This document shows, piece by piece, positions 45,033-45,365 of a stretch of DNA of 64,000 nucleotides. The notes beneath the pieces are model-generated. The model was not told the DNA's origin, made no database searches, and was given only the letters and a program-made list of their open reading frames with translations. Location: the NCBI RefSeq assembly GCF_003018115.1, contig NZ_CP027457.1; one strand, 5' to 3'. A program made the position numbers and the translations under genes. Every line of letters begins with the position of its first letter. Positions within the stretch are counted from its first letter, which is position 1. Source of the stretch: Escherichia coli (lineage in GTDB: Bacteria; Pseudomonadota; Gammaproteobacteria; Enterobacterales; Enterobacteriaceae).

Positions 45033-45365
45033 ATGAAAATGAAAAGAAATCTTCCGTTAATTATTTTGTTGTCTTCTCTGGTTATGGGCTGTACGCAACA
45101 TAAAACAGATATGCCCCGACAGTTGGTTAAGGCATTACCACAATATCCGGCCTATGCAGCGGCAAATTATATAAAGGGACGGGTTGATGTGAAGTTTGAT
45201 ATTGGTGCTGATGGTACTGTCACCCGAATTGAGTTTATCCGTTCAGAGCCGCACCATCTGTTTGATGAGCAGGTTGTAAAGGCGATGGCAAAATGGCGAT
45301 TTGAGAAGGACAGGCCGCGTAAAGGCGTGAAGAAAACGTTTATCTTTAGTCCTTCTGCACCCTGA
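45033..45365 (+). CDS. predicted lipoprotein/secreted protein with TonB C-terminal domain
   Basis: Signal peptide ending VMGC; mature domain LPQYPAYAAANYIKGRVDVKFDIGADGTVTRIEFIRSEPHHLFDEQVVKAMAKWRFE aligns motif-for-motif with host TonB 14935-15654 in this window. Confidence 0.8.
   Translation: MKMKRNLPLIILLSSLVMGCTQHKTDMPRQLVKALPQYPAYAAANYIKGRVDVKFDIGADGTVTRIEFIRSEPHHLFDEQVVKAMAKWRFEKDRPRKGVKKTFIFSPSAP

Follow-up and report, generated by a model that had tools for sequence, protein, structure and literature searches.

TonB-dependent transporters admit siderophores and vitamin B12, and also group B colicins, microcins, siderophore-antibiotic conjugates and the phages T1 and phi80. The C-terminal domain (CTD) of TonB binds the TonB box of a transporter as an added strand beside its own beta3 strand, as seen in the structures 2gsk and 2grx. 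Llp of phage T5 and Cor of phi80, N15, HK022 and the mEp phages are small outer-membrane lipoproteins that jam FhuA from the periplasmic side, and both are genetically linked to the phage receptor-binding module. TonB's periplasmic domain, when overexpressed, inhibits import (Howard, Herrmann, Stratilo & Braun 2001, J Bacteriol 183:5885, as summarised in PMC9841981). Here we analyze a stretch of 64,000 nucleotides from Escherichia coli (NCBI RefSeq assembly GCF_003018115.1, contig NZ_CP027457.1), referred to in full as the window, in which a lambdoid prophage carries a gene at 45039–45365 (+ strand) for a predicted lipoprotein that is essentially a TonB CTD on its own. We refer to it as the TonB-head lipoprotein.

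Compared with TonB, the TonB-head lipoprotein is homologous over the CTD (PF03544; TonB residues ~150–239; structures 1u07, 2gsk and 2grx) but has neither the N-terminal transmembrane helix that couples to ExbB/ExbD nor the Pro-rich rod. It is predicted to be lipid-anchored to the outer membrane, whereas TonB resides in the inner membrane, and it scores 73.2 bits versus 315, which is below the TonB equivalog cut-off (NCBIfam PRK10819 equivalogs). With the engineered periplasmic fragments summarised in PMC9841981 it shares a head without an energy-coupling anchor. Those fragments are soluble, artificial, overexpressed pieces of TonB itself, whereas the protein described here is a natural, lipid-anchored and diverged paralogue with probable regulation of its own, known from sequence.

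The likeness to Llp and Cor lies in the format, a small phage lipoprotein at the inner leaflet of the outer membrane; those proteins act on a TonB-dependent transporter. The fold, in contrast, is unrelated: Llp is absent among the 50 PDB matches listed by Foldseek, and the viral structures of BFVD gave no match at E ≤ 0.001. Furthermore, Llp and Cor are specific for FhuA, whereas the TonB-head gene occupies the junction of lysis and packaging genes in phages whose head, packaging and lysis modules are unrelated, so that any effect of its product would be generic.

Two further points of comparison are the Fur-regulated morons, exemplified by stx1, for which a Fur-controlled promoter of its own is established, and bor of lambda and phage 21, a moron that confers serum resistance. 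Like these, the TonB-head gene is a compositionally distinct and self-contained gene of the late region, and in phage 21 it adjoins bor. Like stx1, it probably has its own Fur-controlled promoter, judging from a 13/19 site and from its relatives. It differs from both in its product and presumed target.

The observation that the sequence is TonB-like is not new, because RefSeq and phage records already name it so, and such annotation is long-standing (for example in phage JLK-2012, phage 21 and RefSeq). RefSeq uses "TonB family protein", the phage 21 record "TonB C-terminal domain protein" (between bor and cos), and other records "protein TonB", "putative tonB-like membrane [protein] from phage origin", "TonB fragment" and "partial tonB-like membrane protein". 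Full-text literature searches retrieved no functional study of the gene, and the genome announcement of phage 21 leaves it undiscussed. What is new is that the gene forms a discrete cassette, that it belongs to an old and separate clade, that its relatives have Fur boxes, and that its PHROG label is wrong.

Results

A predicted lipoprotein made of a TonB C-terminal domain

The open reading frame at 45033–45365 (+ strand) encodes 110 amino acids from an ATG at 45033, or 113 from a GTG at 45024. An earlier note on this DNA, made from the sequence alone, had adopted the 110-residue version. The reading frame itself is borne out, but its start is probably wrong. Translation more likely begins at the ATG at 45039 and yields a protein of 108 residues (MKRNLPL...; 45039–45365), because a Shine-Dalgarno-like GGGA (45029–45032, + strand, read from the sequence) lies 6 nt 5' of this codon, because RefSeq uses the same start (WP_000828070.1) and because the homologues all open with MKR or MKK. 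The phage 21 copy has AGGA at the equivalent spacing, where it is annotated as the ribosome-binding site.

The assignment of the mature protein to the TonB CTD, proposed in the earlier note, is upheld by profile searches. Pfam TonB_C (PF03544) matches residues 36–103 with E=6.7e-15, TIGR01352 scores 56.5 bits versus its curated cut-off of 27.1, and the best sequence matches in the PDB are TonB CTDs throughout. The domain (residues 26–108; 45114–45362, + strand) aligns with TonB 153–233, equivalent to positions 4–82 of the chain in the 1u07 fragment (150–239), and includes the beta3 edge strand. The authentic energy transducer of the host, tonB, lies outside the element at 14884–15654 (+ strand; RefSeq annotation of the syntenic region) and served as comparator. 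In pairwise alignment its CTD is 40% identical to the lipoprotein over 78 residues (E=3e-21), and the motif pairs that had been quoted from the two proteins are visible there.

Based on an alignment of 21 sequences, which included TonB sequences, AlphaFold2 gave a model with confidence (pLDDT) >96 for residues 30–110. This replaced a poor single-sequence model (pLDDT 59). The modelled protein has the same alpha/beta fold as the TonB CTD: its sheet has three strands, and the beta3 edge is exposed. The top Foldseek matches were 1u07, 2gsk_B (TonB on BtuB) and 2grx_C (TonB on FhuA), at a root-mean-square deviation (rmsd) of 1.0–1.4 Å (1.0–1.3 Å for 1u07 and 2gsk_B) and TMt of 0.88–0.93. The predicted structure thus superposes on the TonB CTD, the check that had been suggested for the fold, and does so at 1.0 Å for the BtuB:TonB complex.

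Residues conserved with TonB (E. coli numbering) are P161, Y163, P164, F180, G186, F202, W213, Y/F215 and F230, together with the beta3 strand. Y215 is replaced by F in the window protein, which keeps the YP motif and the rest of the aromatic core. Further replacements in the window protein are R158 to K, Q160 to L and R166 to Y. The clade to which the protein belongs has a conserved surface of its own that differs from TonB, consisting of a Y-Y-A-x-A-N helix, SEPxHLFD and a K at the position of V226.

The signal peptide MKRNLPLIILLSSLVMG|C (45039–45092, + strand) has a basic n-region (K2, R3) and ends in the lipobox VMGC, as had been noted, with the lipidated residue at Cys18 and Thr at position +2; it matches the PROSITE lipoprotein pattern PS51257. 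It is also the single hydrophobic segment of the protein. The absence of a transmembrane anchor and of a Pro-rich spacer, both previously remarked on, therefore holds, and the lipid anchor is joined to the folded domain by a tether of just 7 residues (TQHKTDM; 45093–45113, + strand), where the model has low confidence (pLDDT). Across the family, 17 of 20 members retain the lipobox Cys and match the pattern, P0040 has LSAC, and the residue at +2 is T, S, A or V; none has Asp, the signal for retention in the inner membrane. The spacing from the Cys to the first conserved Pro is 7–8 residues in every copy from E. coli, Salmonella and Klebsiella phages. We infer from these features that the protein is exported and lipidated, and its signal for Sec and signal peptidase II, with no Lol-avoidance residue, predicts sorting to the outer membrane.

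The gene lies in a discrete moron cassette

The window comprises a segment of the E. coli chromosome (adhE-opp-cls-kch-yciI-tonB-yciABC-ompW) followed by the lambdoid prophage, which is integrated beside ompW (integrase at 18565–19695, minus strand). The TonB-head gene is located in the late region of the prophage between the lysis cassette and the packaging genes. On the lysis side are a holin gene, the lysozyme gene (42958–43491), Rz (43973–44446) and the embedded Rz1 (44199–44405); on the packaging side are ynfO/DUF3950 (minus strand), an HNH gene and the genes for the small and large terminase subunits.

The gene is carried by a 604-bp cassette (44888–45491) flanked by a 5-bp direct repeat, AACCG (44883–44887 and 45487–45491). 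The boundaries identify it as an insertion, because in the sister phage vB_EcoS-705R7 (L128), which has no cassette, the flanks are joined directly (...GAAGAAACCG|AACGTTCATT...). The cassette has a GC content of 43%, versus 52–55% in the flanks, and a GC content at third codon positions of 41% versus 66% in terL. The AT-rich island after the lysis cassette pointed out in the earlier note is hence confirmed in both composition and position. A discrete insertion with deviant composition, the cassette is a textbook moron.

At the left junction of the cassette, phage BP-4795 carries an AT-rich insert of another kind. The sequence GGTGCGATGGTGGAAGAAAC at this boundary is conserved in the window (44868–44887), phage 21 (L003, ~3342–3362) and BP-4795 (L129, ~760–777). 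It thus forms the left edge of the TonB-like cassette, of the unrelated insert of BP-4795, or, in vB_EcoS-705R7, of nothing, and looks like a mosaic junction or a hotspot for moron insertion.

At the 5' end of the cassette, a consensus scan found a weak terminator-like hairpin with a T-rich tail (44903–44925, + strand) that is not conserved in phage 21. This hairpin could insulate the gene from late read-through.

The prophage with the TonB-head gene is only ~3 kb from the host tonB. Since the gene also occurs in prophages at other chromosomal positions, this proximity is probably a coincidence.

An old family of phage and chromosomal lipoproteins

The allele in the window is present in 416 of 5426 complete E. 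coli genomes, and the allele of the phage 21 type, with 71% amino acid identity, in 1225 of the same 5426, including the type strain. The ratio of nonsynonymous to synonymous substitution (dN/dS) between these two alleles is 0.12, with dS saturated at ~1.5, and the reading frame is intact in 72 of the 72 copies examined. The gene is under purifying selection.

Several clusters of the phage 21 type (P0010, P0012, P0013, P0016, P0018, P0019 and P0021) are frameshifted near codons 90–95 and have lost beta3; P0012 alone has 130 member sequences. Sequencing errors at an A-rich tract could account for them, or the frameshifts could mark genuine pseudogenes.

The wider family was assembled by exhaustive HMMER search and cluster look-ups. 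It consists of lipoproteins of 105–135 amino acids with a TonB CTD, named only "TonB family protein", from Salmonella, Klebsiella, Raoultella, Enterobacter, Serratia, Pantoea, Erwinia, Rahnella and Gibbsiella. In a neighbor-joining tree of the domain the stand-alone lipoproteins group together and apart from the CTDs of canonical TonB proteins. Based on this tree and on the identities, recent capture of the 3' end of the host tonB is ruled out. The tree places the prophage gene in an older, separate clade, some of whose members are chromosomal.

Members on chromosomes, outside phages, were found in Raoultella, Enterobacter, Serratia, Erwinia, Pantoea and Gibbsiella. Their neighbors vary (a glycine-zipper protein in the Klebsiella clade, YcgN in Serratia, ahpCF/GST in Gibbsiella), and no conserved operon partner was identified in these relatives. 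The phage-borne members always directly follow the lysis cassette and precede HNH/terminase genes. Five phage backgrounds show this arrangement: E. coli Stx-type lambdoid phages, phage 21, Klebsiella ST13-OXA48phi12.4, Salmonella prophages (holin_3/GH19/DUF2514) and a Rahnella prophage with a lambda-type terminase. A scan of IMG/VR retrieved only near-identical E. coli copies.

A distant member of 129 amino acids, P0062, is encoded directly downstream of plasmid partition genes of the ParM/StbA type (1515–3390 of L132, a Logan contig from SRR10097270), which suggests that the family may travel on plasmids too. A Fur-like palindrome, GTAAAAGATTTTCATTTAC, lies behind its start and scores 13/19.

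Fur boxes of the relatives coincide with a palindrome in the window

We scanned 145 bp around each start codon for the Fur consensus, both as a 19-mer and as the 7-1-7 motif of 14 positions. As background, 8 of 1078 windows reached at least 12/14 on the 7-1-7 motif, in a set that included these very loci. Fur boxes were found 5' of family members in at least 7 lineages. On the 7-1-7 motif, the match is 14/14 for the Salmonella prophage (TGATAATTATTATCA) and the Enterobacter chromosome, and 13/14 for Raoultella, for the metagenomic contig encoding P0036 (L006) and for Erwinia sp. S63 (TGAGAATGATTATCA). On the 19-mer it is 17/19 for Serratia, 16/19 for Erwinia typographi, 15/19 for Gibbsiella, 14/19 for the contig of P0046 and 13/19 for Pantoea.

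Upstream of the gene in the window is the palindrome AGAATAAGaCTTATTCT (AGAATAAG-a-CTTATTCT; 45002–45018), which ends 20 nt before the start codon at 45039 and is kept in ~72 near-identical copies, with one variant. Our own scan predicts an extended -10 element, TGtTAGAAT (44998–45006, + strand), with a -35-like TTGATG at a spacing of 19 nt; a standard promoter scan reported no promoter on the + strand. The element, TGT(T/C)AGAAT / TGTTAGTAT, is kept in the phage 21 and Salmonella prophage copies. A 19-mer resembling a Fur box (45004–45022; 13/19 versus GATAATGATAATCATTATC) overlaps the palindrome and would also overlap the predicted -10 element and start of transcription. Scores of at least 13/19 occur at only 29 of ~128,000 positions in the window, and the best score in the promoter region of the host tonB, where the tonB Fur site is expected, is 12/19 by the same count.

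In alignment A4 the palindrome aligns with TGA(T/G)AATTATTATCA of the Salmonella, Raoultella and Enterobacter copies (13–14/14 on the 7-1-7 motif), and the box of these relatives lies directly 3' of a conserved -10-like element, TGTTAG(T/A)AT. As canonical Fur boxes of relatives occupy the same position, the palindrome in the window is probably a degenerate or diverged Fur operator that is possibly still functional. The suggestion, made earlier, that it might be an operator is therefore plausible. The Fur boxes of the relatives and the homologous palindrome tie the family to the iron/Ton regulon, and we infer that it belonged ancestrally to the Fur regulon.

The palindrome was also considered as a statistically unusual feature and rejected as such, since the number of perfect palindromes of similar or greater length in the window is close to that expected by chance. 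What makes it significant is solely where it lies with respect to the Fur boxes of the relatives.

The best match to the Fur consensus in the whole window is elsewhere, at 4787–4806 (TGAGAATAATTAACA; 15/19, and 12/14 on the 7-1-7 motif), upstream of oppA (4960–6663).

A TolA-head lipoprotein in the same prophage

The prophage encodes a second lipoprotein with the head of an energy transducer, also pointed out in the earlier note. The gene at 36382–36810 (+ strand; 'tolA' in RefSeq) matches the TolA CTD of NCBIfam over residues 53–142 with E=1.2e-29 and has the lipobox TTGC. The Q gene and tRNA genes precede it, and in related phages this is the position of stx. The gene is present in 894 of 5426 E. 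coli genomes. Among 15 genomes listed, at least 8 have it ~9–10 kb from the TonB-like gene, and it often lies upstream in the same prophage. The pairing of a Ton-head and a Tol-head lipoprotein in one prophage is real. A Fur box was not found upstream of the TolA-like gene (12/19, 9/14).

Discussion

We interpret the TonB-head gene as a self-contained moron of lysogenic conversion that encodes an outer-membrane-anchored TonB head. A decoy or exclusion function for its product appears plausible, although we would rate this interpretation at somewhat less than an even chance. In a lysogen, the gene would be transcribed from its own promoter when iron is low and Fur repression is relieved, and also with the late operon. 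The lipoprotein would be held at the periplasmic face of the outer membrane, where it could bind exposed TonB boxes, either those of transporters or those of incoming group B colicins, by beta-strand augmentation. Having no link to ExbB/ExbD, it would deliver no energy and would thus compete with TonB. Phages of the T1 and phi80 type, colicins and microcins would then enter less readily by TonB-dependent routes, exactly when their receptors are derepressed, at the cost of some siderophore uptake. Given that the core of the fold and beta3 are kept, and that the protein is predicted to be anchored to the outer membrane and unenergised, competition for TonB boxes or for TonB would be the simplest mode of action. 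The premise of the earlier note, inhibition of TonB-dependent import by periplasmic TonB domains, has been published (Howard et al. 2001, as cited in PMC9841981). Also in favor of this interpretation are the lipobox and short tether shared by the family, the purifying selection and wide spread of the gene, its discrete cassette, the link to iron through the Fur boxes, and the precedent of Llp and Cor.

Several results weigh against this interpretation. The TonB residues implicated in contact with the TonB box and the plug are not conserved: positions 158 and 160 are variable, R166 is Tyr and L170 is Asn each in 12 of 15 clade members, and this pattern suggests a different, conserved interface of the clade's own. 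The Fur-like site in the window matches at just 13/19, and no Fur box was found in the phage 21 copy, in which the right arm of the palindrome is missing, or in the Rahnella prophage copy. Chromosomal members of the family also appear to be Fur-controlled, and an inhibitor of iron uptake that is induced by starvation would be counter-intuitive as a housekeeping gene. Unlike cor and llp, the gene is linked to the junction of lysis and packaging genes and not to the genes for tail receptor binding. The defence models of PADLOC gave no match. Finally, there is no clear terminator 3' of the gene, where the sequence folds no better than its shuffles (z=-1.4).

It is possible, if unlikely in our view, that the lipoprotein is instead an accessory of the Ton system, which would pair with the TonB CTD through beta3 and dock or park TonB during iron starvation, concentrating it beneath the outer membrane, or tune how scarce TonB is shared among transporters. 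Prophages would then carry the gene as a fitness gene for iron-poor hosts. The presence of Fur boxes on chromosomal as well as phage copies points to induction together with tonB and the transporters, and chromosomal members outside phages exist in six genera. The top structural match, 1u07, was deposited with two TonB CTD chains (1u07_A and 1u07_B), which we take to pair through beta3. TonB is also limiting relative to the transporters (PMC9841981). However, an unenergised partner on the beta3 edge of TonB would more simply be inhibitory, heterodimerisation is a supposition, and the Fur box is gone from the copies in phage 21 and the Rahnella prophage.

The clade-specific surface residues, which are unlike those of TonB, would also suit a protein that uses the TonB-like fold to bind another partner, such as peptidoglycan or some protein of the outer membrane, of the periplasm or among those imported. 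The benefit would then lie in iron starvation or envelope robustness and have nothing to do with TonB boxes, much as bor confers serum resistance. There is precedent among the structural matches for a TonB fold with another ligand (FusB with ferredoxin, 9hi3), and the place beside bor in phage 21 is a classic slot for a moron. The Fur control and the preserved beta3 edge strand are nevertheless most simply Ton-related, and the variable gene neighborhood suggests no such partner. We consider this explanation improbable.

The PHROG assignment of the protein (phrog_1267, 'Rz-like spanin', lysis category, E=1.9e-42) would make it a lysis accessory or spanin component, an outer-membrane lipoprotein that joins the i-spanin in the final step of lysis. 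The position of the gene agrees with this: in all five phage types it directly follows the lysis cassette, on the late strand. However, a complete pair of i- and o-spanin is encoded upstream in 4 of these types, namely Rz/Rz1 in the window, the pair of phage 21, an embedded o-spanin in Salmonella and an overlapped o-spanin in Klebsiella. The fifth type, the Rahnella prophage, showed only an Rz-like Phage_lysis gene, with no check made for its o-spanin. Moreover, the protein has a globular TonB fold and is not a short Pro-rich o-spanin, sister phages lyse without the gene, and many members are chromosomal and apparently Fur-regulated. We regard a role in lysis as very unlikely. In view of the complete spanin pairs upstream and the sister phages without the gene, the label of phrog_1267 is wrong and appears to be a positional mis-annotation.

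That the gene is a non-functional remnant, a captured 3' fragment of tonB that stays open by chance, is scarcely credible: the old annotation as a 'partial tonB-like membrane protein' and the frameshifted variants of the phage 21 type in databases (for example the 130 sequences of P0012, without beta3) favor it, but it is contradicted by the dN/dS of 0.12 with saturated dS, by a lipoprotein signal, ribosome-binding site and promoter-like element of the gene's own, by clustering with stand-alone lipoproteins and not with enterobacterial TonB, and by 72 of 72 intact copies and a very wide distribution.

Returning to the decoy interpretation, a TonB head that competes for TonB boxes would be a generic, prophage-encoded modulator of all TonB-dependent routes at once. 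It would bear on resistance to colicins and phages in the gut, on iron acquisition by pathogens and on how susceptible cells are to "Trojan horse" antibiotics. Up to ~30% of complete E. coli genomes have a TonB head, provided that the two alleles seldom occur together. The carriers include Shiga-toxin phages. If there is no such effect, the gene is simply a long-annotated, uncharacterised moron. The Fur boxes suggest a role for the family in iron starvation that research on the Ton system has not addressed, and they make the question directly testable.

More tentatively, the Fur-regulated lipoproteins that consist of a TonB head only might represent an unrecognised component of the enterobacterial Ton system, acting at the outer membrane as a brake, decoy or dock for TonB boxes or for TonB, that has been captured repeatedly by phages of E. 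coli, Salmonella, Klebsiella and Rahnella. The pairing with a TolA head would then mean that one prophage manipulates both energy-transduction systems. We consider this broader view rather doubtful.

Other features of the window

No known RNA families were identified in 43900–46500. On the minus strand within the TonB-like gene, 45166–45193 matches a sigma-70-type promoter at 11/12 positions (TTCACA-16-TATAAT). This strong match may serve as the promoter of an antisense transcript, or it may simply reflect AT-richness.

The palindromic sequence CCTCTCCGGAGGGG occurs three times, at 37103–37116, 39061–39074 and 39591–39604, in an area that includes ~1.9 kb without an annotated gene in a RefSeq relative. 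A perfect palindrome of 18 bp, CAGTTAACATGTTAACTG, is located at 46196–46213 between the genes for the HNH endonuclease and the small terminase subunit, and may be related to packaging (cos / terminase-HNH region).

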